Assembly (NCBI GenBank): GCA_049510745.1
Contig: JBEKYR010000014.1
Span: forward strand, 32,001-96,000
Source: Verrucomicrobiota bacterium
Lineage (GTDB): Bacteria; Verrucomicrobiota; Verrucomicrobiia; Limisphaerales; Palsa-1400
Length of the DNA stretch: 64,000 nucleotides
Direction of reading: 5' to 3'
Position numbers and translations under genes: made by a program
Shown here: piece after piece, positions 6,909-30,619 of the stretch
Layout: every line of letters starts with the position of its first letter
How positions within the stretch are numbered: the first letter of the stretch is position 1
The notes under the pieces: model-generated
What the model was told of the DNA's origin: nothing
Database searches by the model: none
Seen by the model: the letters and a program-made list of their open reading frames with translations, nothing else

Positions 6909-6923
6909 TGGCACACAAGTTGC
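6909..6923 (+). promoter_or_regulatory. sigma54 (-24/-12) promoter
   Basis: TGGCAC-ACAAG-TTGC is a consensus match, about 80 bp upstream of the gene at 7005. Confidence 0.8.
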
Positions 6924-7004: not shown

Positions 7005-7535
7005 ATGAACATACTTAGGAAAGCTCTGATAGCCGGCGCGTGCGCGTGCGCGCTCTTTTCAACTACGGGCAGCCTCATGGCCCAGGGACGCCCCAATTTC
7101 GATCCCGCCCAAATGAAAAAAGACAGGCTCGACAGCCTGCGCGATCAAATGGAGATCAAGGACGATCAGGAATGGACCGCGATCGAAGCCAAACTCAGCA
7201 AAGCCTACGATGCCCGCGCCAACGTCATGGGCATCAGCATGCGCGGCGCTTTCGGCCGCGGCGGACCACGCCGCAATCCGAACAACGGCAACGCGGATGA
7301 TCAGACGCAAAGGCCGCGCCGGAACCCGTTCGGCGACCCAAGCCCCGCCTTCGATGCCCTGCAAAAAGCCATCGATGACAAGGCCCCCAGCGCCGAGATC
7401 AAGACCAAGCTGGCCGCTTACCGCGCCGACGTCAAGGACCGCGAGGCCAAGCTCGCAGCGGCCCAGGAAGATTTGCGCAGCGTCCTGACGCCCCGCCAGG
7501 AAGCCATCGCCACCATCAACGGTCTTTTGCAATAG
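7005..7535 (+). CDS. Periplasmic helical LTxxQ-motif protein (Spy/CpxP/ZraP-like)
   Basis: Signal peptide ending LMA|Q, helical and charged sequence, C-terminal 'VLTPRQ' (LTxxQ). Confidence 0.65.
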   Translation: MNILRKALIAGACACALFSTTGSLMAQGRPNFDPAQMKKDRLDSLRDQMEIKDDQEWTAIEAKLSKAYDARANVMGISMRGAFGRGGPRRNPNNGNADDQTQRPRRNPFGDPSPAFDALQKAIDDKAPSAEIKTKLAAYRADVKDREAKLAAAQEDLRSVLTPRQEAIATINGLLQ

Positions 7536-7555
7536 ACTCCCCCAACGGGGAGTCT
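7534..7555 (+). terminator. Hairpin after the LTxxQ gene (partial terminator or mRNA stabiliser)
   Basis: AGACTCCCC-CAAC-GGGGAGTCT, a 9-bp perfect stem with a weak U-tract. Confidence 0.55.
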
Positions 7556-7629
7556 TACTGTGGCCGCGCCGGGCGTTCCGAGGGGCGGACATCCCCGGAC
7601 GCCGGCGCCGCCGCAGGAGGCCCATTAAA

Positions 7630-9384: not shown

Positions 9385-9390
9385 CCCTCT

Positions 9391-10632
9391 ATGCCCGTTT
9401 TCGTTTACAAAGCGTTTCAAGCCGACGGCCAAACCGCCGAGGGCCAACTCGAGGCGGGCGGACGGCAGGAGGCTTTTCAGCGGATGGAAGAGAAAGGCCT
9501 GCGGCCCATCACGCTGGCGGAGAAAGCCGCCGCCGCGGAGAAAGACGGCAACGGCGCGCCGCCCCCAAGCGCGGCGTTCAGGTTTCAATCCAAGAAGGTC
9601 ACGCCGCGCATGCTGGAAAACTTCACCCGGCTGCTCTCCAGTTTGCTGGCGGCGGGCGTGCCGTTGAGCCGCGCGCTGGTCATTCTTTGCAAAGAGGCCG
9701 CCAGCCCCCTGGCCGCCGCCAAGTGGAAGCAGATTTACGACTCGGTCGTCGATGGCATTTCCCTGGCCGATTCCATGGCCACCATGCCGGACACCTTCCC
9801 GCGCGTCTATGTGGCGATGGTGTCGGCGGGCGAAACGGGCGGGTTCCTGGACCTGGTGCTGGCGCAAATCGCCGATTTCCAACTGCGGGAAAGAGACCTG
9901 CGCGGCAAGGTCACCGCGGCCATGCTTTACCCGGCCATCCTGCTCGTGCTCTCCATTGCCGTGTTGATCGTCCTGATGACATTTTTTATTCCGCGATTCC
10001 AAAAGATGTTCGAGGGTTTCGGCGGGCAATTGCCGCTGTTGACGCGGATGATCGTCGCCGTCAGCTACTGGATTCGGCACTACGGGCTTTTCATCGCCGT
10101 CGGGCTTGTGGTCACCGGATTGCTGGTGCGCAATTGGATCACCTCGGAGCGCGGCCGGCGGACCTGGGAAGGATTCATTATTCGCGTGCCGGTGCTGGGG
10201 CCGCTCTTGAGCCAATTTGCCATGGCCCGCTTTTGCCGGATGCTCGGCACGCTGCTCAACGCCGGCGTGCCGTTGGTGCAGGCCCTCAACGTCGCCCGCC
10301 GCTCCATCGGCAACCAGATCCTGGTCGATGCCGTCTCCAATTCCATCGAGCGGGTCAAGGAAGGCGCGCAATTGGGCGCCAGCCTCTCGGATTGCAAGTC
10401 GCTTTTCCCCAGCTCGGTCCTGGAAATGATTTCCGTCGGCGAAGAAAGTGGCAAGCTCGACCAGGAATTGGTCCGCATCGCCGGCGTGACGGAAACGGAC
10501 CTGGACCGGAACCTGAAAACGGCGGTGGCGTTTCTGGAGCCGTTGATGCTTTTTTTCATCGCCGGGTTTATTGGAACGATTTTCATCGGCATGATCTACC
10601 CGATTTTTGCCATGCAAGACTACATCAAATAA
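9391..10632 (+). CDS. gspF: Type II secretion inner membrane platform protein GspF/PilC
   Basis: Two T2SSF repeats ('AGETGG.LD', 'GEESGKLD'), plus AMLYP and LEP motifs. Confidence 0.95.
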   Translation: MPVFVYKAFQADGQTAEGQLEAGGRQEAFQRMEEKGLRPITLAEKAAAAEKDGNGAPPPSAAFRFQSKKVTPRMLENFTRLLSSLLAAGVPLSRALVILCKEAASPLAAAKWKQIYDSVVDGISLADSMATMPDTFPRVYVAMVSAGETGGFLDLVLAQIADFQLRERDLRGKVTAAMLYPAILLVLSIAVLIVLMTFFIPRFQKMFEGFGGQLPLLTRMIVAVSYWIRHYGLFIAVGLVVTGLLVRNWITSERGRRTWEGFIIRVPVLGPLLSQFAMARFCRMLGTLLNAGVPLVQALNVARRSIGNQILVDAVSNSIERVKEGAQLGASLSDCKSLFPSSVLEMISVGEESGKLDQELVRIAGVTETDLDRNLKTAVAFLEPLMLFFIAGFIGTIFIGMIYPIFAMQDYIK

Positions 10633-10647
10633 AAAGACAGGACATTT

Positions 10648-11088
10648 ATGAGAATAACCCCCCGCCATGCAAATCGCCCCGCCCGCCGGACTCAGGGCGC
10701 ATTCACGCTCGTTGAACTGCTCCTGGTGATGACCATTCTGGCCATTCTGGCCGGCATCGTCCTGCCGAAGATGGCCGGCAGGGGCGAACAAGCCCGCGTG
10801 GCGGCGGCAAAGACCCAGATTGAATCCTTCGGCACAGCCTTGGGCACATACGAAGTCGATAACGGCAACTATCCTCGCGGGCGGGACGGCTTGCAGGCCC
10901 TGATCGTCAAGCCGCGCGACGCCCTCAACTGGCACGGTCCGTACATGGAGAAGGATATTCCGCCGGATCCGTGGGGCAAAAAATACGTGTATGAATGCCC
11001 CGGCAAACACAACCCGTCCGGCTATGATCTCTACACGACCGGCCCCGACGGCACTGTTTATGGAAACTGGACAGTACAACAACGATAA
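10648..11088 (+). CDS. gspG: Major pseudopilin GspG
   Basis: 'GA|FTLVELLLV', 'YEVDNGNYP', 'WHGPY..DPWG..Y.Y..PG...YDLY..GPDG'. Confidence 0.95.
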   Translation: MRITPRHANRPARRTQGAFTLVELLLVMTILAILAGIVLPKMAGRGEQARVAAAKTQIESFGTALGTYEVDNGNYPRGRDGLQALIVKPRDALNWHGPYMEKDIPPDPWGKKYVYECPGKHNPSGYDLYTTGPDGTVYGNWTVQQR

Positions 11089-11620
11089 GGCCCGGCGCCG
11101 CGCCGCCTTCACCTTGGTCGAATTGATCCTGGTCATGACCATCATGGTGATCTTGATCAGCCTGGTTTTCCCTTCCCTGAAGGGCTTCTTCCACGGGCGC
11201 AACCTCGACAACGAGGCGCGCCGGTTTTTGTCGTTGACACGATACGCCCAAAGCCGCGCCATCTCCGAGGGTCTGCCGGTCGAACTGTGGATGAACCCGC
11301 GCAGCGGCTCCTACGGCGTGCAGGCGCTCTCCGGCTACACGGAAACGCGCACCAATCCGATGGCCTTCAACCTCGACTCCACCGTGACGCTCGCCTTTTC
11401 CGCGCCGTCCTCCGTCCTGGTGCGCTCCAACTTCTGGACGCAGGCCCAAGGGCAGTTCGGCGCGGTGGGCAAAATCCGCTTCCAGCCCGACGGTTTTATC
11501 AGCGACACCAGCCCGGAGAACATTTTTTTTCGGCAGGGCGCGGACGGCCAGATTTGGATCGCGGAAACCCCCTCCCATTTGAGATATGACATTCAACCCG
11601 GCCAACCCAACCGCCGCTAA
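11060..11620 (+). CDS. gspH: Minor pseudopilin GspH/FimT-like
   Basis: 'AA|FTLVELIL', 'YAQSRAI', 'IRFQPDG'. Confidence 0.8.
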   Translation: METGQYNNDKARRRAAFTLVELILVMTIMVILISLVFPSLKGFFHGRNLDNEARRFLSLTRYAQSRAISEGLPVELWMNPRSGSYGVQALSGYTETRTNPMAFNLDSTVTLAFSAPSSVLVRSNFWTQAQGQFGAVGKIRFQPDGFISDTSPENIFFRQGADGQIWIAETPSHLRYDIQPGQPNRR

Positions 11621-11996
11621 ACGCGCCCGCTCCGGCTTCACGCTGGCCGAGGTGCTGGCGGCGATGCTGTTTTTGGTCATCGTCATCCCGGTGGCCGTGC
11701 AGGGGTTGCATGTCGCCAGCATGGCCGGCGAAGTCAGCCAGCGCAAAATGGCCGCCGCCCGCATCGGCAACAAAATCCTCAACGAATTGAAGGTGACCGG
11801 CCAATTGCAAAACACCAGCCAAAGAGGCGTCGTGCAGGACCGCGGCCTGACTTACACATGGTCGGTCAAAAATCAGCCCTGGACGGAGGACACTCTCAGC
11901 CAGATGACCGTGGCCACCGTCACCGTCACTTATATGGCCCAGGGCAGGAGCTTCGACGTCAACCTGAGCACGCTGCTGCCGCCCGTCCAGCCATGA
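11586..11996 (+). CDS. gspI: Minor pseudopilin GspI-like
   Basis: 'SG|FTLAEVLAA', short length, position between the H- and J-like genes. Confidence 0.75.
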   Translation: MTFNPANPTAAKRARSGFTLAEVLAAMLFLVIVIPVAVQGLHVASMAGEVSQRKMAAARIGNKILNELKVTGQLQNTSQRGVVQDRGLTYTWSVKNQPWTEDTLSQMTVATVTVTYMAQGRSFDVNLSTLLPPVQP

Positions 11997-12682
11997 AACC
12001 GCCCCTCCATCCCAACCCTGCGCGCGCGTTCACGTTGCTGGAATTGCTCCTGGCCATTTCCATCATGTCCATCGTCCTGGTTGCGATCCACGGCGTTTTT
12101 TTCACGGCCATTCACCTGCGCAACGCCACCGTCAATGCCGTCGAAGCCGGCCTGCCGGTCGAACAAGCCCTGGAAGTCATGCAGCATGATCTGGCCAACA
12201 TCGTCGCCTCCACCAACGGCGTGCTCATCGGCCCGCTCCAAACCACCACTCCCACCAACGCCCTGCCCGACCAGATCGGCCCTGATTTTTACACCACCGG
12301 CGGAGAAATGGACGGCATGGTGCCGTGGGGCAATATCCAGAAGATTGATTATTTGCTCTCCACGCCGACCAACGGCGTTCGCGGTCCGGGCAAGGACCTC
12401 ATCCGCGCCGTCACCCGCAACTTGCTCCCCCTGAACCAGCCGCCCCAGCCGGACGAACAACATGCGCTCCTGAGCGGCGTCCAGACTTTGACGTTCCTCT
12501 ATTATGACGGCACGCAATGGGACCCCGATTGGGACACCACCCAGCAAACCAATCTGCCCCTGGCCATCAAGGTGCGCATTCAAATGGCCGCCGCCCGGGG
12601 CGTCGCCGCCGGCGGCCCGTTGGAACTGGTCGTGCCTGTGGATATTCTGCTCAACACCAACCCCGTCACCGCACTGCAATGA
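11993..12682 (+). CDS. gspJ: Minor pseudopilin GspJ-like
   Basis: 'RA|FTLLELLLA' and 'LLSGVQTLTFLYYDGTQW..WD...LPLAIKV', a typical GspJ C-terminus. Confidence 0.85.
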   Translation: MKPPLHPNPARAFTLLELLLAISIMSIVLVAIHGVFFTAIHLRNATVNAVEAGLPVEQALEVMQHDLANIVASTNGVLIGPLQTTTPTNALPDQIGPDFYTTGGEMDGMVPWGNIQKIDYLLSTPTNGVRGPGKDLIRAVTRNLLPLNQPPQPDEQHALLSGVQTLTFLYYDGTQWDPDWDTTQQTNLPLAIKVRIQMAAARGVAAGGPLELVVPVDILLNTNPVTALQ

Positions 12683-14121
12683 AACTGGCCGCCGCCAATT
12701 CGACTTCGTCCCGCGCCTCGGTGTTGATCATCGTGCTCTGGGTCGCCTTTGGCCTGGTCGCCATCACCCTCTATTTCGCCAACGCCATGTCGATGGAACT
12801 CAAGGCGGCCGATAACCGGGTCGCCAGCCTGGAAGCCGATCAAGCCATCGAGGGCGCCGCCCTTTACGTCAGCAACATCCTCGCCAACCGCGCCAACATG
12901 ATGATGATTCCCACCCCGGACAATTTCCGCGCCGACGGCGTGAAGGTGGGCGAGGCGACCTTCTGGCTGGTGGGCCGGGACACCAACGACCTGCAAACCT
13001 CCGCCCAGGGCGAGCAGCCCGTCTGGGGCCTCATCGATGAAGCCTCCAAGCTCAATCTCAACAGCGCCACCGCCGCCGAGCTGCAGAATCTTCCGCAAAT
13101 GACGGCGAACACGGCCGCCGCCATCTACGATTGGCAGACCGGCAGCAACAGCTCGCCCAGCACCGGCGGCGCCAAATCCGAAACCTATTCCGGTTTGCAG
13201 CCCGCCTACCTCTGCAAAAGCGCCCCCTACGAGAGCATCGACGAGTTGCGCCTGGTCTATGGCCTGAACATGGACCTGCTCTACGGCGAGGACGCCAACC
13301 TTAATGGCATCCTGGACCCCAACGAAAACGACGGCATGGTCACGCCGCCTACGGACAATTCCGACGGCATCCTCGATCCCGGCGTCCTGGAATACGTCAC
13401 CGTCTGGAGCCGCGAACCGACCCTGGACACCAACGGCTCGGCCCGCATCGCTGTCAACGATATTTCAAGCTTGACCTCGTTTCTCCAGCAAAGCTATCCC
13501 TCCCTGGTCTCCTACCTGGCTCCCTTCGGCGGCGGCGCAGGGGCGGCCGGCGGCGCGGGGACGGCCGCCGGCGGACGCGCCGGCGCTGGCACCGGCGCCG
13601 GGGCAACGCGTGGCGGAGCCGCCAGCGCCACCGCCGCCGCCGCTCCCACCAGCGTGCTGGACTTCTACATTCGCAGCGGCATGTCCGAAAGCGATTTTCA
13701 GCAAATCGAGCCATTTCTCATGAATACCAACTTGACGGGCTTGATTAACGTCAACACCGCCACCGCCACCGCCCTGGCGTGCGTCCCGGGCATCGGCCTG
13801 AACCAGGCGCCCCAAGTGCTCGCTTACCGCCAGTCCAATCCGCCGCAGACGCCCTCGATCACCTGGCTCAAAACCGCCCTGGGCACCACCGATCCGGCCA
13901 CGATCGCGCAGGTTGGCCCTTATGTCACCCCCTACTCCTTTCAATTCACCGCCGATGTCGTCGCGCTCGGACACCACAACCGCGGCTATCGGCGGGTCCG
14001 CTTTGTTTTTGATTGCAGCAGCGGCACGCCCCTGATCGTCTATCGCCAGGACCTGACCCATCTGGGATGGGCCTTGGGCAAAAAACTGCACGACCAATTG
14101 TTGGCCGATAACTCGAAATGA
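12679..14121 (+). CDS. gspK: Minor pseudopilin GspK-like
   Basis: 'RASVLIIVLWV' (no Glu5), 'IDEASKLNLNSA', 'ESIDELRLVYG', 'INVNTA..LACVPGIG'. Confidence 0.9.
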   Translation: MKLAAANSTSSRASVLIIVLWVAFGLVAITLYFANAMSMELKAADNRVASLEADQAIEGAALYVSNILANRANMMMIPTPDNFRADGVKVGEATFWLVGRDTNDLQTSAQGEQPVWGLIDEASKLNLNSATAAELQNLPQMTANTAAAIYDWQTGSNSSPSTGGAKSETYSGLQPAYLCKSAPYESIDELRLVYGLNMDLLYGEDANLNGILDPNENDGMVTPPTDNSDGILDPGVLEYVTVWSREPTLDTNGSARIAVNDISSLTSFLQQSYPSLVSYLAPFGGGAGAAGGAGTAAGGRAGAGTGAGATRGGAASATAAAAPTSVLDFYIRSGMSESDFQQIEPFLMNTNLTGLINVNTATATALACVPGIGLNQAPQVLAYRQSNPPQTPSITWLKTALGTTDPATIAQVGPYVTPYSFQFTADVVALGHHNRGYRRVRFVFDCSSGTPLIVYRQDLTHLGWALGKKLHDQLLADNSK

Positions 14122-15560
14122 TCGCCTTTTTCAAATCCAAACGCGCCGCTTCCGTCCTGGGTTTGGCCCTGGACGGCAACCGGCTGGAAGCCGTCGTTCT
14201 ACGCCGCTCCAACGGAACGCTGCATGTCCGCAAAGCCGTCTCCGCCGACCTGGCGATGTCGCCGCTGACCGACGACCCGGAACTGGTCGGGCGCGAAATC
14301 CGCAATCACCTCGACCAGGCCGGCGTGCGCGAGCGGCGCTGCGCCGTCTGCCTGCCCCTGGGCTGGCTGCTGACGCTGCAGGTCACCGTGCCGGAATTGT
14401 CCGATGCCGACCGGGCCAGTTTCCTGCAACTGGAGGCCGAGCGGGGATTTCACGGCGGCCCCGAGGCGCTCTTCACCGCCCATTCCCTGTTCCGGCCGGT
14501 GGGCGGCGAGGCGTTCGCCACCTTGCTGGCCGTGCCGCGCAACCACCTCGATACCCTCGAACGGGTCCTGCGCGCCGCCAAGCTCAAGCCCGTCACCTTC
14601 GCCCTGGGCGTCGGCGCCCTCCAGCCCGCCGCCGGCGACACAGGGCGCGTCCTGGCCCTTTGCGTGCGCAGCAATAGTATTGACCTGCAAGTCAGCGGCG
14701 GCGGCGGCATCGTCGCCTTGCGCTCGCTGGACGGGGCCATTGAAACCCAGGGCGGGCAGAAGCGGATTTCGGCCGAGTTGACCGCGCGCGAGTTGCGCAT
14801 CACGCTGGGCCAGTTGCCCGGCGGCCTGGCCGGCGGCCCCGGCAAAATCCGCGTCTTCGGCCAGGGCGAAATGTGCCGCGAGTTCGTCCATGATATATCT
14901 CCGCGCCTGGAGGCGATGGGCCTGGCGGTGGAAACCGTGGACCGGGTCCCGGACGCGCTGTTCGACCCGCCGCCGCCGCCGGACTTGGCGGTGTCTCCGG
15001 CGCTGGCCCTGGCCGCGGCCTGGGTGCGGGGCGCCGATTCCACTCCCGAGTTTCTGCCTCCGCGCGTCCAGCCGTGGCAGCAATTGATCAGCACGCGCCT
15101 GTCCACCCGCAAACTGGCCTACGCGGGCGGGGCGGCCGCCGCCGTGGTTTTGGGCATTCTGCTTGCCTTCGGCGTGCAGCAATGGCAAATCCACAGCCTG
15201 CAATCCAAATGGAACGCCATCGCGCCGCTGGTCAGCGAGTTGACCGGCGACCAGGACCAGATCAAAAAATTCCGGCCCTGGTACGACCAGACGTTTCGCA
15301 ACCTGCGCATCCTGCGCCGCTTGACGGAGGCCTTTCCCGAAGACGGCTCGGTTTCCGCCAAAACGGTCGAGATTCGCGAAACGGCCGGCATCACCTGCTC
15401 CGGCCAGGCGCGGGACAAGGCGGCGTTCGTCCGCATGCACGACAAGCTGGGCGACGACACCAATGAGATCAGCAACCTGCACGCCGAGACCCGCGGCCAA
15501 AACCCGACGCAGTTCACCTTGAACTTCCAGTGGGAGGAAGGAGTGGCCAATGGAAACTAA
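14118..15560 (+). CDS. GspL/PilM-PilN-like assembly platform protein
   Basis: Actin-like N-terminus ('VLGLALDGNRL'), a single TM helix, a PilN-like periplasmic C-terminus, and operon position. Confidence 0.7.
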   Translation: MIAFFKSKRAASVLGLALDGNRLEAVVLRRSNGTLHVRKAVSADLAMSPLTDDPELVGREIRNHLDQAGVRERRCAVCLPLGWLLTLQVTVPELSDADRASFLQLEAERGFHGGPEALFTAHSLFRPVGGEAFATLLAVPRNHLDTLERVLRAAKLKPVTFALGVGALQPAAGDTGRVLALCVRSNSIDLQVSGGGGIVALRSLDGAIETQGGQKRISAELTARELRITLGQLPGGLAGGPGKIRVFGQGEMCREFVHDISPRLEAMGLAVETVDRVPDALFDPPPPPDLAVSPALALAAAWVRGADSTPEFLPPRVQPWQQLISTRLSTRKLAYAGGAAAAVVLGILLAFGVQQWQIHSLQSKWNAIAPLVSELTGDQDQIKKFRPWYDQTFRNLRILRRLTEAFPEDGSVSAKTVEIRETAGITCSGQARDKAAFVRMHDKLGDDTNEISNLHAETRGQNPTQFTLNFQWEEGVANGN

Positions 15561-16083
15561 GAACCGCGAGAAAATCCTGGCCATCGCCGCCGGCGTCTGC
15601 GCCGGCCTGTGGCTCTTCAACCTCCTGGTCATTACGCCCATGACCAACGCCTGGCACCGCCGCTCCGCCCAAATCGACAGCCTGCGCAAGGCCATCGCCG
15701 AAGGCACGATGCTCCTCCGGCGGCAGGACACGGTGCGGGGGCGCTGGGACTACATGCGGACCAACGCCCTCTCCAGCAACCCGACCGTCGCCGAGCGGCA
15801 GTTGTTCGTCGCCTTTGACCGCTGGGTCGGCGCCAGCGGCGTGACCGAAGGCTCCTTCCGCCCCCAGTTGCACGAGACCGACGACAATTATTCCACCATC
15901 GAATGCCGGGCGGATGTGACGGGCACCCCCGAAGCCGTCACCCAGTTTCTTTTTGACATGGAAAAAGACCCGATTGGGGTTAAATTGGAGTCATGCGAAC
16001 TGACCTCACGCGACGACAACGGACGACAACTGGCGCTCGCCCTGGACATGAGCGGCTTGATTTTGCCCACACCCAATCCATGA
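15550..16083 (+). CDS. GspM/PilO-like protein
   Basis: 'NREKILAI' followed by a TM helix, coiled coil and ferredoxin-like tail; operon position. Confidence 0.7.
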   Translation: METKNREKILAIAAGVCAGLWLFNLLVITPMTNAWHRRSAQIDSLRKAIAEGTMLLRRQDTVRGRWDYMRTNALSSNPTVAERQLFVAFDRWVGASGVTEGSFRPQLHETDDNYSTIECRADVTGTPEAVTQFLFDMEKDPIGVKLESCELTSRDDNGRQLALALDMSGLILPTPNP

Positions 16084-16652
16084 AATCGTTCGCCCCCATC
16101 ATTATCGCGTCGTTGCTGGTTGCATCCATGAGGGCGCCGGCCCAGGAAACCAATGCCGGGGCCAGGCCGGACTTTAATTCGTTCAAAATCATCGCTGAAA
16201 GAAATATATTTGACCCGACCCGCACGGGGCGGCGCCGGCCCGGCGCCCCGCCCCGCCGCGTCGAGCGCGTCAGCCTGGTGGGCACGAGCATCGATAACGG
16301 GGACGCGGTGGCTATCTTCACAGGCAACGGCGTGCCGGAGCGGCCCTTCAAGACGGGTGATACAGTGAAGGATTTCAAAATTGTCCAGATCACACTGGAT
16401 AGCGTCCGCCTGACGGGCGTGACCAACACCAATATGTTTGTGATGGACTACGACAGCCGAAGGAGCCTGCGCCGCGAGGAGAACGGGCCGTGGCAGGGGT
16501 CGTCCGACCTCTCCGACCCGGTCCTTATTCCCAGCGGCAATGCCGATGACCCGGCGCCGTCCGCCAGCGCCTCCGCCCCGCCCGCGGGCGGCGGCGGCGA
16601 GAGCGACATTATCAAACGACTCAGATTGAAACGCGAACAGGAGGAAAAATGA
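16080..16652 (+). CDS. Exported GspC/PilP-like protein
   Basis: Signal or TM segment, 'RNIFDP', HR-domain-like 'SLVGT...AIF...FKTGDTVKDFKIVQITLDSVRL'; lies just before the secretin genes. Confidence 0.6.
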   Translation: MKSFAPIIIASLLVASMRAPAQETNAGARPDFNSFKIIAERNIFDPTRTGRRRPGAPPRRVERVSLVGTSIDNGDAVAIFTGNGVPERPFKTGDTVKDFKIVQITLDSVRLTGVTNTNMFVMDYDSRRSLRREENGPWQGSSDLSDPVLIPSGNADDPAPSASASAPPAGGGGESDIIKRLRLKREQEEK

Positions 16653-18214
16653 AAATGAAACACCTTGTCACTATTCTATTGACTACCTTTGCCGCCGGAT
16701 GGCTCGCCGCCGCCGCGGACGACACCACCAACGCGCCCGCCCCCGGCCCGCCCCCGGACGCGACCGCCGCGAACACCGCGCCGACCCCCGCCCCGGCGCC
16801 GGAAACGCCGGACACAAACCTGCCGGCCGAACCGACGCCGACCAACGGCCTTATCCTCAACTTCCACGATGCGCCTTTGAACGCCGTGCTTAATTATCTC
16901 AGCGCCAAGGCGGGGCTGATCATCATGTCGGATGTCGATTTGCGGGGCAAGGTGAGCGTCGTGGCCAAACAACCGGTCACCACCAACGAGATCGTCGATT
17001 TGCTCAGCGAACAACTGGGCAAGAACAACTACGCCGTCAACCTCAACGGCCGCACTCTGACCATTATGGATGCCACCCGCGCCAAGACCAGCGCCCTGAC
17101 TCCCGTCATCGTCGCCAACGGCGGTCCGAACACGATTCCGATCAACGACATCGTCGTCACCGAAATCCTGCCGGTCCACACCCTCAACCCGGGGCAACTG
17201 GTCAAGGACCTTGAAACCCTCATCCCCCCGGGCGACACCGTCACCGCCAACGACGCGGGCAACGCCATCCTCATGACCGCTTCGCAAAAAGACATTCATC
17301 GCATCTCCGAAATCATCGCCGCCCTCGACAGTTCGGCCATTTCCGACGTCGAGGTCTTTATCCTCAAATTCGCCGATGCCAAGTCGGTCGCCTCCGAATT
17401 GAAGGAAGTTTTCCAAAGCGCCGATTCGGACATCACCCGCGCCAACACGCGCAACACGTTTGCCGGCCGCGCCGGCCGGGGCGGGTTCGGCGGCGGGTTC
17501 AACCCCTTCGGTGGCGGCGGCGGCGGGGGCGGCGGCACCGATGACAGCACGAAAACCTCGCAAACCCACGCCGTCTTCGTCTCCGACGATCAAATGAACG
17601 CCGTCGTGGCCAGCACGCCGCCCGACTACATGCGCACCGTCAGCAACATCGTTGAGCAGTTGGACCAACCGAGCCAGGACATCACCGAAATCAAAGTCTT
17701 CCATTTGAAGAACGCCGACCCCCAGGAGATCGCCGACGAACTGTCCACCCTGTTTCCTTCAAGCACCAGTTCGGACCAGAACAGCCGGACGATGGGCTTT
17801 CGGTTTGGCCCGCCGTTTATGCAGCAGCAATCCTCGGCCAATTCCCAAAGCACCCGCATGAAACACCAAACGACCGTGGTGGCCGTGGCCGACCGCCGCA
17901 AGCAAGCGGTGGTCGTCACGGCTTCGAAGGATATGATGACGGAGATCAGAGCGATGATTGCCGACTTGGACGAAGGCACCCAGGGCGTGCAGCATGTTTT
18001 TGCCTTGCCCATCGACAGCGCAGACCCGGCCAGTGTGCAGGAAACCATGACCGGCCTCTTTGCCGGCTCCGGTGCCTCCTCCAAACAAACGCAGACGCAA
18101 ACGGCCTTGAGCGCCCGCGAGCAGAGCAATGCCAACAGCCAATCCACCACCACCACTTCCTCCTCCTCCAGCAGCTTCGGCACCGGCGCCAGCGGAACGA
18201 CCGGAATTCGGTGA
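16649..18214 (+). CDS. Secretin N-terminal half (N0 plus NolW-like domains, no barrel domain)
   Basis: Signal peptide, N0 'LILNFHDAPLNAVLNYLS', NolW-like repeats ('FILKFADAKSVASEL', 'FHLKNADPQEIADEL'), ends in an S/T/G-rich tail. Confidence 0.85.
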   Translation: MKMKHLVTILLTTFAAGWLAAAADDTTNAPAPGPPPDATAANTAPTPAPAPETPDTNLPAEPTPTNGLILNFHDAPLNAVLNYLSAKAGLIIMSDVDLRGKVSVVAKQPVTTNEIVDLLSEQLGKNNYAVNLNGRTLTIMDATRAKTSALTPVIVANGGPNTIPINDIVVTEILPVHTLNPGQLVKDLETLIPPGDTVTANDAGNAILMTASQKDIHRISEIIAALDSSAISDVEVFILKFADAKSVASELKEVFQSADSDITRANTRNTFAGRAGRGGFGGGFNPFGGGGGGGGGTDDSTKTSQTHAVFVSDDQMNAVVASTPPDYMRTVSNIVEQLDQPSQDITEIKVFHLKNADPQEIADELSTLFPSSTSSDQNSRTMGFRFGPPFMQQQSSANSQSTRMKHQTTVVAVADRRKQAVVVTASKDMMTEIRAMIADLDEGTQGVQHVFALPIDSADPASVQETMTGLFAGSGASSKQTQTQTALSAREQSNANSQSTTTTSSSSSSFGTGASGTTGIR

Positions 18215-18243
18215 TCGCAACATCTTTCCAACCAATCAAAAAT

Positions 18244-19491
18244 ATGACCATCCAAACTGCGAAACTTCGGGCCGGCCGGTGGACGGCGCTAGGCCTCTGT
18301 TGCCTGACTCTTCCATTGCTGGCGCAAACCCGGACCGGCGGCGGCGGCGGCGGGGGTGGCGGCTTTGGCGGCGGCGGCTTTGGCGGCGGCGGGGGCGGGG
18401 GGGGCGCGGGACGAACTTCCACCGCCACCTCCGGCACTTCCACCATTGAACGCCCGGCCAACGGCCAGGTCGGCACGGCCAACTTCTATGTCGATCAGGA
18501 TTCGCGGCAGTTGTTTGTCATCGCCGACGACGCGACCGCCGGCTACGTAAGCAACGTGGTGGCCAACCTCAACCGCCCCAAACCGCAGGTCTTGATCAAG
18601 GTCGTCTTCCTGGAAGTCACCTATAATAAAGGCGTGGACATCGGAGTTGAAGGCGGCGTCACCAAAAGAATCAACGCCTCCACCACCAACTCCGCCTCCA
18701 GCCTTTTCGGTCTGGCCCAACAGGGCATCACCCCCAATTCCGCCGGCGTCAACACCCTCCCCGGCGCCGGCCTCTACACCGTCGTCGGCAACGATTTCTC
18801 CGCCACCTTGCGGGCCATCTCCGAAGTCGGGAAGGTCGAAGTCCTCTCCCGCCCCACCGTGCTGGCCCGCAACAATCAGCAAGCCACCATTGTCGTCGGC
18901 CAGGAGGTTCCTCTCATCACCGGCGTCACTTATGACACTTTTGGCAACGAGCACAACGCCATCTCCTACCAGAACGTCGGCATCATCCTCCAAGTCACAC
19001 CGTTCATCACCTCCGACAACATGGTCGAGATGATCCTGGCGCCGCAAATCTCGGAGGTCGATCCCAGCCACTCCCAGGCCATCGCTTACACCACTAACGG
19101 CCAGGCCATCACCGCCCCGTATATCGACATCCGTTCCGCCAACACGGTGGTCGTCACGCCCGACGGCCAGACCGTGGTCATCGGCGGCTTGATGCAAAAC
19201 AGCCGCTCCAGCACCGACAGCAAAATTCCCATTCTGGGGGACATCCCGCTCCTGGGCGCGTTGTTCCATCACAAACTCCAATCCGACACCAAGACCGAGT
19301 TGATTATTCTGCTCACTCCCTACGTGGTCAAGACGCCGTCCGACCTGGCCCGGATGAGCGCCGACGAGCGTGGCCGGGCGCAACTGGCGCCCAAGGCCTT
19401 CTCCCAGGCCGAGTTGAACCAATACCTGGAAGGCGGACAAAGCAAACCACCGCCCCCGGCCGCCCCGTCCGGCTCCCCCCATGCCCGATAA
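18244..19491 (+). CDS. gspD: Secretin C-terminal half (barrel domain) with its own signal peptide; alternative GTG start at 18211
   Basis: Signal peptide ending LLA|Q, 'PQVLIKV', 'LSRPTVLARNNQQATIVVGQEVP', 'GQTVVIGGL', 'KIPILGDIPLLGALF', 'TELIILLTP'. Confidence 0.9.
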   Translation: MTIQTAKLRAGRWTALGLCCLTLPLLAQTRTGGGGGGGGGFGGGGFGGGGGGGGAGRTSTATSGTSTIERPANGQVGTANFYVDQDSRQLFVIADDATAGYVSNVVANLNRPKPQVLIKVVFLEVTYNKGVDIGVEGGVTKRINASTTNSASSLFGLAQQGITPNSAGVNTLPGAGLYTVVGNDFSATLRAISEVGKVEVLSRPTVLARNNQQATIVVGQEVPLITGVTYDTFGNEHNAISYQNVGIILQVTPFITSDNMVEMILAPQISEVDPSHSQAIAYTTNGQAITAPYIDIRSANTVVVTPDGQTVVIGGLMQNSRSSTDSKIPILGDIPLLGALFHHKLQSDTKTELIILLTPYVVKTPSDLARMSADERGRAQLAPKAFSQAELNQYLEGGQSKPPPPAAPSGSPHAR

Positions 19492-19504: not shown

Positions 19505-20947
19505 ATGATGACTCGCCGTGGATGGGCTGTTTATGGTGTGCTGGCGGCCGTGTGGGTCGCCCTGATTGCCTGGCAGACAGGCGAGCACGTCCGCGTCCGC
19601 AAAGCGCTCCACGATAATCTCATCGATCGGGGCCGCGCGAAAACGACGGCCTGCGGCAAGCTCATGCGCTCGCCCCGCTTTTCCCCGGGCATCATCAACC
19701 GGGAACGGCTCGAAGGCGGCCTCAGTGTCCTGGTCGATACCAATGAGCTTCGCTCGGTCGAACTGCTCAACAATTCCGACGAGGTGGTCGCCTCCGCCGG
19801 GCCGCCCATCAAGTTGCCGCCGCCCAGCGACTTTGAGGGCGGCGTCTATTGGGGCGACGACACCGCCATTCTGAAGTATCCGATTGAATTGGGAACCAAC
19901 ATGGTGGCCGAACTGGTCATCCCCTCCGCGGAGTTGCTTTCCATGCGCACCAATCGTTTGGCCGCCGCCGGCATCAACCCGGACGACCGCCCGCCCTTCG
20001 CCCCCGACCAGCCCCCCCGCCGGGTGGATTTTCGCACCGAGCGTCCTTACTGGATGAAGGAGGAAGATTACAGGGCGCTGATCAACACCAAGAGCGCTCA
20101 CACCTTTGTCGTCGTCTTGTCCGCCCAGCCCGTCCTGGCCGCCCAGCGCGATGATTTCTGGATGCGCGTGTTCATTGCCATGATGGGCACGGTGGCCGTC
20201 GCCGGCTACGGCCTGGCGTGGCGCAGCCTGGTCAAAACGTCCGAGCTGCAATTGCGCCTGGTCCGCGCCAGCGAACAGAACCTGCACCTCAAGGAAATGA
20301 ACATCGCCGCCGCCGGCCTGGCCCATGAAACCCGCAACCCTCTCAACATCATTCGCGGCCTGGCCCAACTCATCTCCAAACACGAGGAGGCCGCCCCTGA
20401 AATCCGCGCCAAGTCCCGCGACATCATTAACGAAACCGACCGCGTCACCGCCCAACTCAACGGCTTCATCAACTACTCCCGTCCCCGCGAAGTGCGCCGC
20501 GCCCCCACCGACCTCGGCGCCGTCGCCGCCGAAGTCGCCCGCGCCCTCAATTACGACCTCGAGGAGAAGAAAATCCAGCTCGAAGTCCTGGTCGAATCCA
20601 TGGTCATCGAAGCCGACGAACAACTGCTGCGCCAGGCCCTCTTCAACCTCGTCCTCAACGCCGTGCAAGCCGTGCCCCCCCAGGGCGTCATTCGCATCCG
20701 CGCCAGCCGGCGCACCAACGAGGAAGCCTTCATCGAAATCTCCGACAACGGCCCCGGCGTGCCCGCCGAGCATCGCGCCGAGATTTTCAAACCCTACTTC
20801 ACCACCCATGCCGAGGGCACCGGCCTGGGTCTGGCCGTCGTCCAGCAAATCGTCCTGGCCCACGGCTGGGAGATCGAGTGCCTGGCCAACCAGCCCGCCG
20901 GCGCGCTCTTTCGCATTTCGCACGTCAAGCTTAAGATGAAGGAGTGA
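19505..20947 (+). CDS. Membrane sensor histidine kinase (NtrB/ZraS-like)
   Basis: Two TM helices, H-box 'AAGLAHETRNPL', N-box 'NLVLNAVQA', 'DNGPG', 'FKPYFTT..GTGLGL'. Confidence 0.95.
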   Translation: MMTRRGWAVYGVLAAVWVALIAWQTGEHVRVRKALHDNLIDRGRAKTTACGKLMRSPRFSPGIINRERLEGGLSVLVDTNELRSVELLNNSDEVVASAGPPIKLPPPSDFEGGVYWGDDTAILKYPIELGTNMVAELVIPSAELLSMRTNRLAAAGINPDDRPPFAPDQPPRRVDFRTERPYWMKEEDYRALINTKSAHTFVVVLSAQPVLAAQRDDFWMRVFIAMMGTVAVAGYGLAWRSLVKTSELQLRLVRASEQNLHLKEMNIAAAGLAHETRNPLNIIRGLAQLISKHEEAAPEIRAKSRDIINETDRVTAQLNGFINYSRPREVRRAPTDLGAVAAEVARALNYDLEEKKIQLEVLVESMVIEADEQLLRQALFNLVLNAVQAVPPQGVIRIRASRRTNEEAFIEISDNGPGVPAEHRAEIFKPYFTTHAEGTGLGLAVVQQIVLAHGWEIECLANQPAGALFRISHVKLKMKE

Positions 20948-22323
20948 AGAAAGTGTCCAACGACGTTTCCATCGGCCCGCGCGCGCCACGACTCCTGATT
21001 GTCGATGACGACGCCGGCCAGCGCAGCCTGCTGGATTCCTTTCTCAGCAGCCAGGGCTTCGAAACCGTCCCGGTCTCCTCCGGCGAACGCGCCCTCGAAA
21101 TCCTGCGCGAACAGGAAATCAACATGATGATCTCCGACGTGCGCATGCCCGGCCTGACCGGCCTGGAAACCCTCCGCCTGGCCCGCCAGCAACACGGCTC
21201 TTTTCCCATTCTTTTGGTCACCGCCTACGCCGATGTCCGCGACGCCGTCGGCGCCATGCGCGACGGCGCTGTCAATTATCTTTCCAAACCGATTGACCTG
21301 GACGAATTGCTCGCCTCCGTCCGCCAGGCCACCGGCCTGTCCCGGCGCGTGCCGCTCAAATTCGACGCCGGCAAGCAATTGCCCTCCAACATCGTCGCCG
21401 CCAGCCCCCTCATGCAGGCCCTTTTCCGCGACGTCTCCCTCATCGCCGCCTCCGAAAGCCGCGTGCTCATCACCGGCGAAAGCGGGGTGGGCAAGGAAGT
21501 CGTGGCCGATGTCATCCACACTTGGAGCGCGCGGGCCGCCGGAAACCTGGTCAAGGTCAACTGCGCCGCCATTCCCGAAACGTTGCTGGAGAGCGAACTT
21601 TTTGGGCACGAAAAAGGCGCCTTTACCGGCGCAGTCGCCCAGCGCATTGGCCGCTTCCAGATGGCCGACGGCGGCACGATTTTCCTGGATGAAATCGCCG
21701 ACATGGCCCAGCAGCTTCAGGCCAAATTGTTGCGCGTCGCCCAGGATGGCCGTTTCCAGCGCATTGGCTCGAACTCCGAAATCCACGTCAACGCCCGCAT
21801 CCTCGCCGCCACCAACCGCAACCTGGAGGAGGAAGTCAAAGCCGGCCGTTTCCGCGAGGATTTGTTTTACCGGCTCAACGTGGTGGAACTGACCGTGCCC
21901 CCGCTGCGGGAACGGCGCGAGGACATTCTCCCGCTGGCCAATCAATTGCTGGCCGGGTTCACCCAGGGCCGCGCCCGTCTCTCTTCCTCCGCCGCCGCCT
22001 CTCTGGAGGCTTACTCCTGGCCCGGCAACGTCCGCGAACTGGCCAACGCCATGGAACGCGCCGCCTTGTTGTGCCGCGGCGATCTCATTGTGCCCGAACA
22101 CCTGCCCCCCCGCATCCAGTCTGGCGCCCGTCCCGGTGCCGCGCTGGAATCGGCCGACGCCGGCAAGCTCGAGGAAGTCGAAGCGCAAGCCGTTCTCCAG
22201 GCCTTGCGCAAGAACGATTTCAACCGCACCGCCACAGCCAAGGCCCTGGGCATCAGCCGTCGCGCGATGATCTACAAACTCCAGCGCCTGCGCGAGCTTG
22301 GCCACAACGTCGATGCCCCGTAG
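20944..22323 (+). CDS. sigma54-dependent response regulator (NtrC/ZraR-like)
   Basis: Receiver domain (VDDD, SDVRMP), GESGVGKE, GAFTGA, REDLFYRLNV, WPGNVREL and a Fis-type HTH. Confidence 0.95.
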   Translation: MKKVSNDVSIGPRAPRLLIVDDDAGQRSLLDSFLSSQGFETVPVSSGERALEILREQEINMMISDVRMPGLTGLETLRLARQQHGSFPILLVTAYADVRDAVGAMRDGAVNYLSKPIDLDELLASVRQATGLSRRVPLKFDAGKQLPSNIVAASPLMQALFRDVSLIAASESRVLITGESGVGKEVVADVIHTWSARAAGNLVKVNCAAIPETLLESELFGHEKGAFTGAVAQRIGRFQMADGGTIFLDEIADMAQQLQAKLLRVAQDGRFQRIGSNSEIHVNARILAATNRNLEEEVKAGRFREDLFYRLNVVELTVPPLRERREDILPLANQLLAGFTQGRARLSSSAAASLEAYSWPGNVRELANAMERAALLCRGDLIVPEHLPPRIQSGARPGAALESADAGKLEEVEAQAVLQALRKNDFNRTATAKALGISRRAMIYKLQRLRELGHNVDAP

Positions 22324-22350: not shown

Positions 22351-25300
22351 ATGAAAAGAACAGTCCTGGCACTGCTGGCAATAGCTGCCATCGCTGGTTG
22401 CATGCTGAGTCCGGACGGGATGAAAGGCGCCGACGATATGGCCCAGGGGTTTGCCAATCCGCCCTCTTCCGCCCGTCCGTGGGTTTATTGGTTTCCGCTC
22501 GACGGAAACATCACCAGCAACGGCATCACCGCCGATCTGGAGGCGATGAAACGGGTCGGGATTGGCGGCGTGCTCTACATGGAAACAGACCAAGGCGCGC
22601 CAGAGGGGCCGGCCCGATTCGCGGGACCTTTGTGGCGCGACCTCTTCAAACATATCTGCTCGGAAGCGCGCCGCCTGGGCTTGGAGGTGAACATGAACAA
22701 CGACGCCGGCTGGTGCGGCAGCGGCGGCCCTTGGATCACGCCGGAGCTGTCGATGCAGCGGGTGGTTTGGACCGTGACCAATGTGTCCGGGCCGCTGGTT
22801 TTCACCGGGACCCTCCCCCAGCCCGAAGCCAAATTGAATTTCTATCGCGACATCGCCCTGCTCGCCTTCCCCACACCCGCAATCAGTTACCTGATACCGA
22901 ACATTGGCGACAAGTCGGCCGAAGGGTCGGGGGAGATTCCGCTTCACACCGTTTTTGCGGCGCTGCCTTCGGAGGCGGTCATTCCGCGCGACCGCATCGT
23001 GGACCTCACGGCGCGCCTTGGGGAGGGTGGCCGTCTGGTCTGGGACGTGCCGGCAGGCCGTTGGACGCTCTTGCGCCTCGGACATACGACCACTGGAGTG
23101 GAGAACCACCCCGCCCCGCCCGGCGGCTTGGGATTGGAGAGCGACAAGTTGAGCAAGGAGGCGTCCGACGCGGCGTTTGCCGGCCTGATGGCCAAGGTCA
23201 TTGCTGACTCCAAATCGCTGGCGGGCAAAGGCAAGACGCTGGTTTCAACTCATATCGACAGTTGGGAAACCGGCTCCCAGAATTGGACCCCGCGTTTCCG
23301 CAGGGAGTTCAAGCGGTTGCGCGGTTACGACCCGCTGCCTTTCTTGCCGGTGATGACTGGGCGGGTGGTGGACAATTTGGAAGTTTCCGAACGGTTCCTC
23401 TGGGACGTTCGCAAAACGGTGGACGATCTGCTGCTGGAGAATTACGCCGGCCAATTCCATAAATTGGCCAACCGCCGCGGCCTGCGGCTTTCCATCGAAG
23501 CTTACTTTGGCGAGCCTGCGGAGGACATGGCTTACGCCGGGCGCGCCGACGAGCCAATGGGCGAATTCTGGTCGTGGACCAGATATGGCGCCGCCAGCAG
23601 TTGCACCGAGATGGCTTCGGCGGCCCATATTTATGGCAAGCCCATTTTGGGCGCCGAAGCCTTCACCGCCACTGACGGCGAAAAATGGCAGGGGTATCCC
23701 GGCTCGATCAAAGAACTGGGCGACTGGGCCTTCTGCGAAGGGATCAATCGTTTCGTCTTCCACCGCTATGCCCTTCAACCGTGGACCAATCCCGACCGCC
23801 TTCCCGGCATGTCCATGGGACCGTGGGGGCTTCATTACGAGCGCACTCAAACTTGGTGGGAACAGTCCAAGGCGTGGCACGAATATCTGGCCCGCTGCCA
23901 GTTCATGCTCCGGCAGGGGCTTTTCGCGGCCGACCTCTGTTTTCTTGAGCCGGAAGCGTCCCCACAGGGTTTTCACTCGCCAGTCAAATCCGGCTACGAC
24001 CGTCCGGGTTACGGTTTTGACGGCTGCACGGCGGAAGTTGTGCTCACGCGCATGTCGGTCAAAGCCGGACGGCTTGTATTGCCCGACGGCATGAGCTACC
24101 GGATGCTGGTGTTGCCCAAGGTCGGAACGATGACTCCGCGTCTGTTGGGCAAGATCAAGGAGTTGGTCGCCGCCGGCGCCACCGTTGTGGGCGCGCCGCC
24201 GGTGAAATCGCCCAGTCTGAGCGATTATCCCAAGTGCGACGACGAGGTGAAAAGACTGGCTGGCGAGTTGTGGGGAACAGGCGAACCGCCGGAGCAAGCC
24301 ACCGGGCGTCCCTTTGGCAAAGGCAAAATCATCTGGGGTGGAGAGTTCCGGCTCGATCCCGAACCCACGCCGCAACCCGTCAGTCAACTCAGTTCAGGGA
24401 AATGGATTTGGCGCGCGGAAGGTAATCCCGCGGAAGCCGCGCCGCCAGGCGCCCGTTACTTCCGCCGCCTTCTGACCGTCGAGGCCGCAAGCCCCATCTC
24501 CTCCGCCCGGCTGGAGATGACCGCCGATAATTCTTTCCAGTGCTGGGTCAATGGCCAGAGCGCCGGCAGCGGAGACGACTGGAACCGGATCGTTTCCATG
24601 GACCTCACCCACCTGCTCAAACCGGGCGCGAACCTGCTCGCGGTGGCCGCCGTCAACGGCGGAGACCATCCCAACCCAGCCGGCCTCATCGGATTGCTGA
24701 GCATCAAATACGCCGACGGACGTTCTCAGGAAATCCCCACCGACCAGAGATGGGAGGCGGCGGAAAGCGCGAGCCGCCAATGGATTTCCGACGCGACCGC
24801 ATCCGACGGATGGGCCGCCGCGATGGAACTCGGCCCCCTGGGCATGTCACCTTGGAACTATCCCGCCATGAGTCTCGGCAACCCGGACTCCATTCCTGAC
24901 ATCGATTCTCTTTGCCGCCTGTTGGCCGCGATGAGGGTGCCGGCGGACTTCAGCTTTCAGGCCGCGGACGCCTCGCCATGCCTGCGCTTCATCCATCGCG
25001 TCGCCGGTGGCACGGACCTCTATTTTGTCGCCAATAAATACCCGCGCCCGGAGGACGCCTTGTGCTCCTTCCGCGTTTACGGTCGCCGTCCGGAATTATG
25101 GCGGCCGGATACAGGGCGCATCGAAAGAGCCGCAGCCTATGACGAGCAAGACGGCTGCGTCCGCCTCCCTGTTCGTTTCGATCCGAATGGTTCGGTCTTT
25201 GTTGTATTCCGCGACGGCGCGCCGGTGGAGGAGGACCGGATTACCGCGATGAGCTGCGACGGCGCGCCTCTCCTGACCACCGCTTTGGCCGAGTCCGCTT

Positions 25301-26028
25301 ATGTCTCAGCCACCCGCGGGCGGTCCGAGGCAGTGGAACTGACGCGAGATCAGAGCGGACGCGTGGCAGCCGAAGTCTCGCGGCCGGGCAAGTATGAGAT
25401 GGCGTCCGCCGACGGTCGAACCCGGCGATTCGAGTTGGCCTTCGTGCCTCAGCCCATCGAAATCACCGGACCGTGGGACTTGCGCTTCCCTCCAAACTGG
25501 GGAGCGCCGGAACACGTCACACTCGACCGGCTGATCTCATGGAGTGACCATCCCGACGCCGGCGTGAAGTACTTTTCCGGCGCCGCCACTTACTGCAAGA
25601 CGATTCAGGTCCCGGCCAGCCTGATCGAGGGGAATCGCCGGTTTTATCTGGACCTCGGCGAGGTGGCTGTCATCGCGCAAGTCAAGCTCAACGGCCAGGA
25701 CCTCGGCATCCTCTGGAAAGCGCCCTATCGCGCTGATGTCACCGGCGTTCTCCGGCCGGGGGACAACGATCTGGAGATCAAGGTCGTCAACCTTTGGATC
25801 AACCGCCTCATCGGCGACGAGCAATTGCCGGAGGACAGCGAGCGCAACAGCAACGGCACGCTCAAGCAGTGGCCGGAGTGGCTTGGGAAGGGCCAGCCCA
25901 GCCCAACCGGGCGCTTCACCTTCACCAGTTGGCGGCTTTGGCACAAGAACGATCGATTGGTTGAATCCGGACTGCTTGGCCCGGTGACCCTGCAAACATC
26001 GGCAATAGTCACTGTTGCCGCCCAATAG
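22351..26028 (+). CDS. Glycoside hydrolase family 106 (alpha-L-rhamnosidase-like), exported
   Basis: 'FANPPSSARPWVYW..GNIT..GITADLEAMKRVGIGG', 'GWCGSGGPWI', 'HIDSWE', 'PMGEFW', 'GAEAFT', 'SGLLGPV'. Confidence 0.9.
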   Translation: MKRTVLALLAIAAIAGCMLSPDGMKGADDMAQGFANPPSSARPWVYWFPLDGNITSNGITADLEAMKRVGIGGVLYMETDQGAPEGPARFAGPLWRDLFKHICSEARRLGLEVNMNNDAGWCGSGGPWITPELSMQRVVWTVTNVSGPLVFTGTLPQPEAKLNFYRDIALLAFPTPAISYLIPNIGDKSAEGSGEIPLHTVFAALPSEAVIPRDRIVDLTARLGEGGRLVWDVPAGRWTLLRLGHTTTGVENHPAPPGGLGLESDKLSKEASDAAFAGLMAKVIADSKSLAGKGKTLVSTHIDSWETGSQNWTPRFRREFKRLRGYDPLPFLPVMTGRVVDNLEVSERFLWDVRKTVDDLLLENYAGQFHKLANRRGLRLSIEAYFGEPAEDMAYAGRADEPMGEFWSWTRYGAASSCTEMASAAHIYGKPILGAEAFTATDGEKWQGYPGSIKELGDWAFCEGINRFVFHRYALQPWTNPDRLPGMSMGPWGLHYERTQTWWEQSKAWHEYLARCQFMLRQGLFAADLCFLEPEASPQGFHSPVKSGYDRPGYGFDGCTAEVVLTRMSVKAGRLVLPDGMSYRMLVLPKVGTMTPRLLGKIKELVAAGATVVGAPPVKSPSLSDYPKCDDEVKRLAGELWGTGEPPEQATGRPFGKGKIIWGGEFRLDPEPTPQPVSQLSSGKWIWRAEGNPAEAAPPGARYFRRLLTVEAASPISSARLEMTADNSFQCWVNGQSAGSGDDWNRIVSMDLTHLLKPGANLLAVAAVNGGDHPNPAGLIGLLSIKYADGRSQEIPTDQRWEAAESASRQWISDATASDGWAAAMELGPLGMSPWNYPAMSLGNPDSIPDIDSLCRLLAAMRVPADFSFQAADASPCLRFIHRVAGGTDLYFVANKYPRPEDALCSFRVYGRRPELWRPDTGRIERAAAYDEQDGCVRLPVRFDPNGSVFVVFRDGAPVEEDRITAMSCDGAPLLTTALAESAYVSATRGRSEAVELTRDQSGRVAAEVSRPGKYEMASADGRTRRFELAFVPQPIEITGPWDLRFPPNWGAPEHVTLDRLISWSDHPDAGVKYFSGAATYCKTIQVPASLIEGNRRFYLDLGEVAVIAQVKLNGQDLGILWKAPYRADVTGVLRPGDNDLEIKVVNLWINRLIGDEQLPEDSERNSNGTLKQWPEWLGKGQPSPTGRFTFTSWRLWHKNDRLVESGLLGPVTLQTSAIVTVAAQ

Positions 26029-30594: not shown

Positions 30595-30619
30595 CGCGCC
30601 AGGATTTAAACGGCCCGTT

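Follow-up and report, generated by a model that had tools for sequence, protein, structure and literature searches.

The window analysed here is a stretch of 64,000 nucleotides (nt) from a Verrucomicrobiota bacterium (assembly GCA_049510745.1, contig JBEKYR010000014.1, positions 32,001 to 96,000), in which the secretin of a type II secretion system (T2SS)-like gene cluster is divided between two genes. The T2SS secretin, GspD, is a gated outer-membrane pore of 12–15 subunits. Gene 1 (GspD-N, 521 amino acids (aa), 16649–18214) encodes a periplasmic N-domain array without a barrel, and gene 2 (GspD-C, 415 aa, from ATG 18244 to 19491) encodes half an N domain followed by the secretin barrel; unless stated otherwise, features lie on the forward strand. 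Sequence comparison across an order of Verrucomicrobiota, the Limisphaerales, indicates that this two-gene split is real, old and conserved. Overall, we read the pair as a fission-derived two-chain secretin, in which complementary half-domains would dock the N-domain array onto the barrel and the assembly would serve as a T2SS pore, and we assign this reading a probability of about 0.72.

Domain layout of the two secretin genes

Pfam searches of gene 1 returned an N0 domain and three Secretin_N stretches, and no barrel. The gene opens with a signal-peptide-like N-terminus of approximate extent, followed by a Pro/Thr/Ala linker (16649–16717, read from the sequence). The N0 domain (aa 67–145, 16847–17083; PF21305, E 2.9e-7, and model) precedes three complete NolW/N domains. 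The first (aa 168–229, 17150–17335) folds as β-α-β-β-α in the AlphaFold2 model; the second, with a Gly-rich internal loop (aa 233–342, 17345–17674), and the third, also with an internal loop (aa 346–443, 17684–17977), were delimited by Pfam and the model. Behind them stands only the β1-α1 half of a further, barrel-adjacent N domain (aa 447–472, 17987–18064), recognised by its conserved core, by half-domain model matches and in the structure model. The Ser/Thr/Gly tail contains a short conserved helix (18101–18142, from homologue alignment and model). In the chain 1 model (mean predicted local distance difference test score (pLDDT) 67.9), N0 and three β-α-β-β-α domains are succeeded by an unpaired extended segment (aa 446–453), a helix (aa 460–472) and a tail helix (aa 486–497). 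With PF21305, three PF03958 stretches and fold matches to the N-domains of PulD, XcpQ and GspD, gene 1 shows the N0 and NolW repeats of the GspD type, and it covers positions 1–303 of the TIGR02517 GspD profile with 180.8 bits (cut-off 351.35).

In gene 2, Pfam detected the secretin barrel only. A signal-peptide-like N-terminus (18244–18324; basic n-region, hydrophobic core and LLA/Q, called by heuristic) leads into a poly-Gly/Ser/Thr linker (18325–18444), probably the remnant of an N-domain internal loop, as it resembles the loop that joins the halves in the single-chain relatives P0003–P0006. The β2-β3-α2 half of the barrel-adjacent N domain follows (aa 78–112, 18475–18579); it is E-E-H only in the model and was matched only by β2β3α2 half-models. 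The β-barrel domain (18580–19338; PF00263, E 4.7e-47; VIA Z 15.1, root-mean-square deviation 8.7, 271 residues aligned to 5wq7) is completed by two modelled C-terminal helices at the S-domain position (19339–19431); no pilotin partner was identified, no search being aimed at one. Gene 2 covers positions 275–599 of TIGR02517 with 227.7 bits (cut-off 351.35). Its AlphaFold2 model (mean pLDDT 66.6), begun at aa 68 and leaving out the Gly/Ser/Thr-rich aa 28–67, starts with β-β-α and passes directly into the barrel; both chain models were built on 48-row alignments. An earlier reading of this DNA, made from the sequence only, had described these layouts, with a β-α half at 17987–18061 (aa 447–471) and a β-β-α half at 18478–18573 (aa 79–110), and both descriptions were borne out.

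The two genes together retain the order of single-chain GspD (PulD 6hcg, XcpQ 5wln, GspD 5wq7/5zdh; TIGR02517), namely N0, NolW repeats, barrel and C-terminal helices, and like it they come last in a T2SS-like cluster. In NCBIfam and the PDB, each half has T2SS GspD as its best match, with RcpA ranking lower. Unlike GspD, the pair comprises two genes, two signal-like N-termini, a halved barrel-adjacent N domain and, in the window genome, one extra full repeat. No single polypeptide carries N0–N3 and a barrel above the TIGR02517 equivalog cut-off; there are two open reading frames (ORFs). By homology, the pair probably works like GspD, yet it falls outside the single-chain definition. Three further secretins are encoded in the same genome, in open frames of 603–940 aa.

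Conservation of the split across the order

Gene 2 was matched in all 31 genomes of the family, and at every two-part locus (among 74 loci) the parts lay in separate frames. After removal of own-genome and sequence duplicates, one contig-end locus and one genome (G007) with its barrel gene spread over two frames, 47 other pairs were left, 39–72% and 48–84% identical in most rows. The split was present in 48/48 distinct locus pairs (the window locus and these 47). Gene 2 starts were signal-like at 47/48 loci by a heuristic comprising a Met, a basic residue, a 9-residue hydrophobic core and a small-residue cleavage site. The sequence-only reading had suggested looking in related genomes for the same split with a conserved second signal peptide, and had named close homologues that are all single-chain, with no internal signal peptide, as a finding that would speak against it; the split and a signal-like gene 2 start recur, and the close homologues proved to be split.

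Across the order, 210 of 301 genomes contain exactly one gene 2 match at E<=1e-60. Among the 150 matches listed of these 210, open frames range from 376 to 682 aa, lengths that could not accommodate a fused protein. Of the longest, five (682, 673, 638, 558 and 554 aa; those of 591 and 557 aa were not in this set) were fetched, and all were split with a hydrophobic start of their own. A sample of 150 genomes from elsewhere in the phylum yielded no gene 2 orthologue; 27 of them gave matches at E<=1e-30, all 28–36% identical and in frames of 599–1094 aa. Close fused forms were sought among proteins 913–2605 aa long (7998 candidates scored), which gave 12 matches, the best at 27–31% identity. Named records among the relatives belong to Limisphaerales (2/10 records) and other Verrucomicrobiota metagenome-assembled genomes.

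A broken gene or an assembly artefact would also leave two frames, and the two-frame barrel gene of G007 illustrates that such errors occur. At the window locus, however, the junction was identical in contigs of 4/4 sequencing runs (four studies, one possibly the source), with no differing letters and no gaps; the fusing indel named by the sequence-only reading as a possible refutation was not found in them. These contigs reach from 17700 to 18264–18324, crossing the gene 1 stop (18212–18214) and the ATG at 18244; the poly-Gly repeat at 18325–18413 was skipped, and no single contig piece spans the whole stretch. The order-wide conservation of the split with intact frames refutes the artefact, whose probability we regard as negligible.

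A single chain could alternatively arise by programmed read-through or frameshifting over the junction. The two genes share a frame in 14/48 loci, in agreement with this idea, whereas they lie in different frames in 34/48, which excludes read-through as a general rule. Gene 1 stops are TAA, TGA or TAG, spacers vary from -1 to 496 nt, and read-through would place a hydrophobic signal-like segment inside the chain. A read-through product is thus very improbable. The sequence-only reading had also noted a shared GTGA start/stop overlap. It is present at 18211–18214, but an in-frame 4-nt overlap occurs in 1/48 loci, that of the window alone, so conserved translational coupling is ruled out and the overlap is incidental. 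Because the overlap is found only here and, of the 47 loci that have an ATG, 44 have it 11–62 nt after the gene 1 stop (29 nt in the window), ATG 18244 is the likely start of gene 2, as set from the 48 loci. Separately, two loci (L108 and L109, in G074 and G133) show unusually long spacers of about 500–800 nt, and in G219 (L106:917-2786) gene 1 itself occupies two consecutive ORFs, giving three pieces, which may be real or an error.

Complementary half-domains and the origin of the split

Half-domain hidden Markov models were built solely from complete repeats, and matches above 5 bits were counted over the 48 loci. The β1-α1 half-models of repeats 3 and 2 matched 23/48 and 9/48 gene 1 ends and no gene 2 starts; conversely, the β2β3α2 half-models matched 32/48 and 30/48 gene 2 starts and no gene 1 ends. 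Shuffled sequences gave no half-model matches. Core positions are hydrophobic in 89–100% of the 47 homologues across both halves (91–100% on the β1-α1 half), and the gene 1 tail drifts, save L487 (91%) and the invariant R490. In the monomer models, β1 of chain 1 is unpaired and chain 2 supplies β-β-α only. Complex prediction of chain 2 aa 68–396 with gene 1 aa 442–502, on 48-row alignments and with controls not folded, scored 0.13 and 0.08 relative to a mark of 0.32 and speaks neither for nor against the pairing. The number of full repeats differs among arrays, being two in L116 and L117, three in the window genome and five in P0241, and all of them end in the β1-α1 half. The extra NolW repeat noted by the sequence-only reading is therefore true of the window genome and not a fixed trait, since relatives carry 2 or 5.

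In the single-chain proteins P0003–P0006 the same two halves are connected by a long low-complexity Ser/Gly/Gln loop, and it is here that the split falls. The N3 domain of pIV is described as having lumen-facing disordered loops (10.1101/2021.07.20.453082). Half-models, structure models and the loop of the single-chain relatives all place the break within a single N domain, where the loop lies, as had been proposed. For PulD pre-pore formation, N3 was the only region identified as critical in the excerpts of the study (PMC6946019), so N3 probably has to be complete. Because both halves keep a hydrophobic core, the barrel-adjacent N domain is likely rebuilt in trans from the two chains. This part of the sequence-only reading has good indirect support in the complementary halves, the hydrophobic core and the unpaired β1, and stays an inference.

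The main rival holds that chain 2 oligomerises alone with its half domain and that chain 1 is a separate periplasmic linker to GspC, bound through another surface. Such a role has been proposed for RhcC1, which would connect SctD to the barrel protein RhcC2 (PMC3459982), and the available part of another study reports no resolved N3 in P. aeruginosa RcpA, which indicates that N3 is not universal (PMC10499894). The conserved tail helix with its invariant R490 could also provide an alternative contact between the chains. This arrangement would, however, leave unexplained the complementary halves, the hydrophobic cores kept on both chains across 39–72% identity, and a terminal half that outlasts repeat-number changes and duplication. 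We consider it unlikely.

A quick tree of 74 barrel domains placed the 26 split rows on one branch (SH-like approximate likelihood ratio test (SH-aLRT) support 99), sister (SH-aLRT 96) to the single-chain P0003–P0006, which include Humisphaera borealis (P0005); single-chain giants lie further outside. The single-chain proteins closest to gene 1 are also those closest to gene 2. Because the split barrels group in a single clade next to single-chain secretins and both genes share relatives, the phylogenetic picture identifies the split as fission of one gene, not replacement. The sister proteins are 44% identical in profile over the barrel and carry a loop at the split position; unlike the pair, each is one polypeptide of 922–1189 aa, P0005 having 6 Secretin_N stretches. 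A profile search of representatives returned mostly giant repeat proteins of 2–5.5 thousand aa, and 24 of the 162 proteins examined were without a barrel, several of them probably truncated. Many secretins in the series P0135–P0284 measure 2,100–5,500 aa, their matched repeat stretches numbering as many as 54. Three proteins (P0009, P0180 and P0248) have no barrel and end in β1-α1.

A second split secretin was detected in Phycisphaerae. P0264 is a 3514-aa N-domain array without a barrel that ends in β1-α1, and NCBI names three members of 3514 aa. At two metagenome loci matching it, L121 and L122 (L122:3-11431), the next ORF encodes a hydrophobic segment, a Pro/Thr linker, a β-β-α half (recognised by eye) and full repeats; the second ORF of L122 includes the barrel (162 bits). 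Since this split is known from one lineage and cuts at an internal repeat, it is probably convergent with that of Verrucomicrobiota; the 74-domain tree does not include its barrel.

Taken together, the fission-derived two-chain secretin would have arisen as follows. The starting point would have been a single-chain GspD whose additional N repeats resembled those of Phycisphaerae, and it would have undergone one early fission in the order Limisphaerales; according to sequence and tree, the break hit the disordered loop inside the barrel-adjacent N domain, and the downstream piece acquired a signal peptide. Both chains would be exported to the periplasm, where the β1-α1 end of chain 1 would pack on the β2-β3-α2 start of chain 2 and complete an N3-equivalent domain by fragment complementation. 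By homology, the barrel ring would then carry a non-covalently docked N0–Nx vestibule linking it to a GspC-like inner-membrane platform, and the assembly may work as a T2SS pore.

Several points weigh against this reading. The half-models of repeat 1 (N1) matched 0/48 and 5/48, and the window genome's own half-model scores were weak, at most 3.1 bits, the signal coming from the family. The structure models are modest (mean pLDDT 67–68 on 48-row alignments). The barrel tree was quick, midpoint-rooted and made without a clade test, and signal peptides were called with a simple heuristic that had no negative control. The available part of PMC10499894 describes P. aeruginosa RcpA as a flexible N-domain and linker only, with N3 included in other RcpA homologues. 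Finally, export, assembly and secretion are all inferred.

Genomic setting, extra gene 1 copies and known split secretins

The secretin pair closes a T2SS-like run of genes (7005–16652; Pfam, NCBIfam and inspection) that starts with a small helical periplasmic protein and continues with E, F, G, H, I, J, K, L-like, M and C-like genes. T2SSE, T2SSF, T2SSG, GspH, T2SSJ and T2SSK_1st scored above the Pfam cut-offs; I was assigned by an N_methyl motif only, below cut-off, the GspM (E 6.7e-8) and GspC (E 1.5e-5) matches were likewise below cut-off, and the L-like gene matched PilM only (E 0.096). A pattern match identified a sigma54-like -24/-12 site at 6909–6923, about 95 nt upstream of the first ATG of the operon; the consensus, which we take to be that of sigma54, was also applied to the orphan copies described below, and it has 105 matches in the 5.6 Mb genome. 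Directly downstream of gene 2 lie a histidine kinase and a sigma54-activator response regulator (19505–22323, Pfam). The sigma54-like promoter ahead of the operon and the kinase and activator behind it suggest that the operon has a dedicated two-component system as its regulator. The first gene (7005–7535) had no Pfam match above cut-off. Its helical product has a signal-like start, one relative matches Metal_resist (E 8e-4), and its end resembles what we take to be an LTXXQ motif; it is possibly a Spy/CpxP/ZraP-like chaperone. Further downstream, inspection identified a 1225-aa glycoside-hydrolase-like protein (22351–26028) and, on the reverse strand, a resistance-nodulation-division efflux triplet (26057–31789).

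The pair could instead form the pore of a pilus-type machine, in which case the split would be real and the system label wrong. The weak PilM match of the L-like gene, the below-cut-off C-like gene and an ORF for a PilT-like ATPase that shortly precedes the operon (5628–6791, labelled by inspection) point in this direction, as does the fact that no substrate was identified, no search being aimed at substrates. On the other hand, T2SSG, GspH, T2SSJ and T2SSK_1st pass their cut-offs and GspD is the best match of both halves, and we find a pilus machine quite unlikely.

The C-terminal region of gene 1 gave two or more matches in 12 of the 31 family genomes (third matches in G020 and G021 being counted as raw matches). 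All 210 order genomes have a single copy of gene 2 at E<=1e-60; one family genome, G027, has a second, partial barrel match. At seven distinct orphan gene 1 loci no barrel was present within the 7.6–10 kb fetched, and all seven orphans end in a β1-α1-like segment and tail (12.5–50.7 bits); G012 carries a tandem gene 1 pair inside the operon. The window genome has an intact orphan of its own (G000:C5:97514-98950, reverse strand, 478 aa, 61% identical to gene 1), with a signal-like start and a terminal half-domain, away from any T2SS cluster. A sigma54-like site nearly identical to that at 6909 lies 45 nt upstream of it; only 1/7 other orphan copies has a sigma54-like site directly upstream, and a homologue of the operon's first gene is near 4/7. 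The idea of an exchangeable vestibule gains genomic support because extra gene 1 copies face one barrel gene. We tentatively propose, as a possibility with the odds somewhat against it, that the split N domain is a plug-and-socket joint between one barrel gene and interchangeable operon, tandem and orphan N-arrays, and that such a joint arose separately in Phycisphaerae. If this is true, the cell could fit one pore with different or mixed vestibules, altering its length, partners or substrates.

Two published precedents were left out by the sequence-only reading, and both were available to us in excerpts. In the rhizobial type III secretion system (T3SS), as here, N-terminal domains (RhcC1/NolW) and barrel (RhcC2) are on separate genes; these lie apart and are of different origin, RhcC2 stemming from Tad (PMC3574062, PMC3973906, PMC3459982). 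Unlike our pair, this is a T3SS formed by partial replacement instead of fission, and the excerpts describe no complementary half-domains. At the window locus the flanking genes scanned are T2SS-like or the two-component pair, both genes have the same relatives, and Pfam found no BON domain of the kind seen with a barrel from Tad RcpA. In the mitochondrial T2SS, one N domain is represented by two proteins, GspDN2 for its C-terminal half and GspDN3 for its N-terminal half (PMC8134430; PMC10128026), so that GspD/GspDL with GspDN1–3 likewise distributes a T2SS secretin over several polypeptides with half N domains. That system is eukaryotic, consists of five small proteins without N0 and has free-standing half-domains, whereas the halves described here are joined to an N0-bearing array and to a barrel. 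Excerpts of the review contrast it with a bacterial pore that is an oligomer of a single polypeptide (PMC10128026). The main text of a type IV filament survey contains no occurrence of Verrucomicrobia or Planctomycetes (PMC6668835), and no description of a split bacterial T2SS secretin was found in the literature searched, where coverage of subscription journals was thin.

Such systems may be under-called in annotation, because both genes score below the GspD cut-off. A natural, order-wide fission through the N3-equivalent domain would separate barrel assembly from vestibule attachment, and it makes testable whether N3 folds before oligomerisation and how the N rings are coupled to the inner-membrane platform. 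It would be a bacterial counterpart of the half N-domain proteins known from the mitochondrial T2SS, and the surplus of N-array genes over a single barrel gene suggests that pores might be modular.

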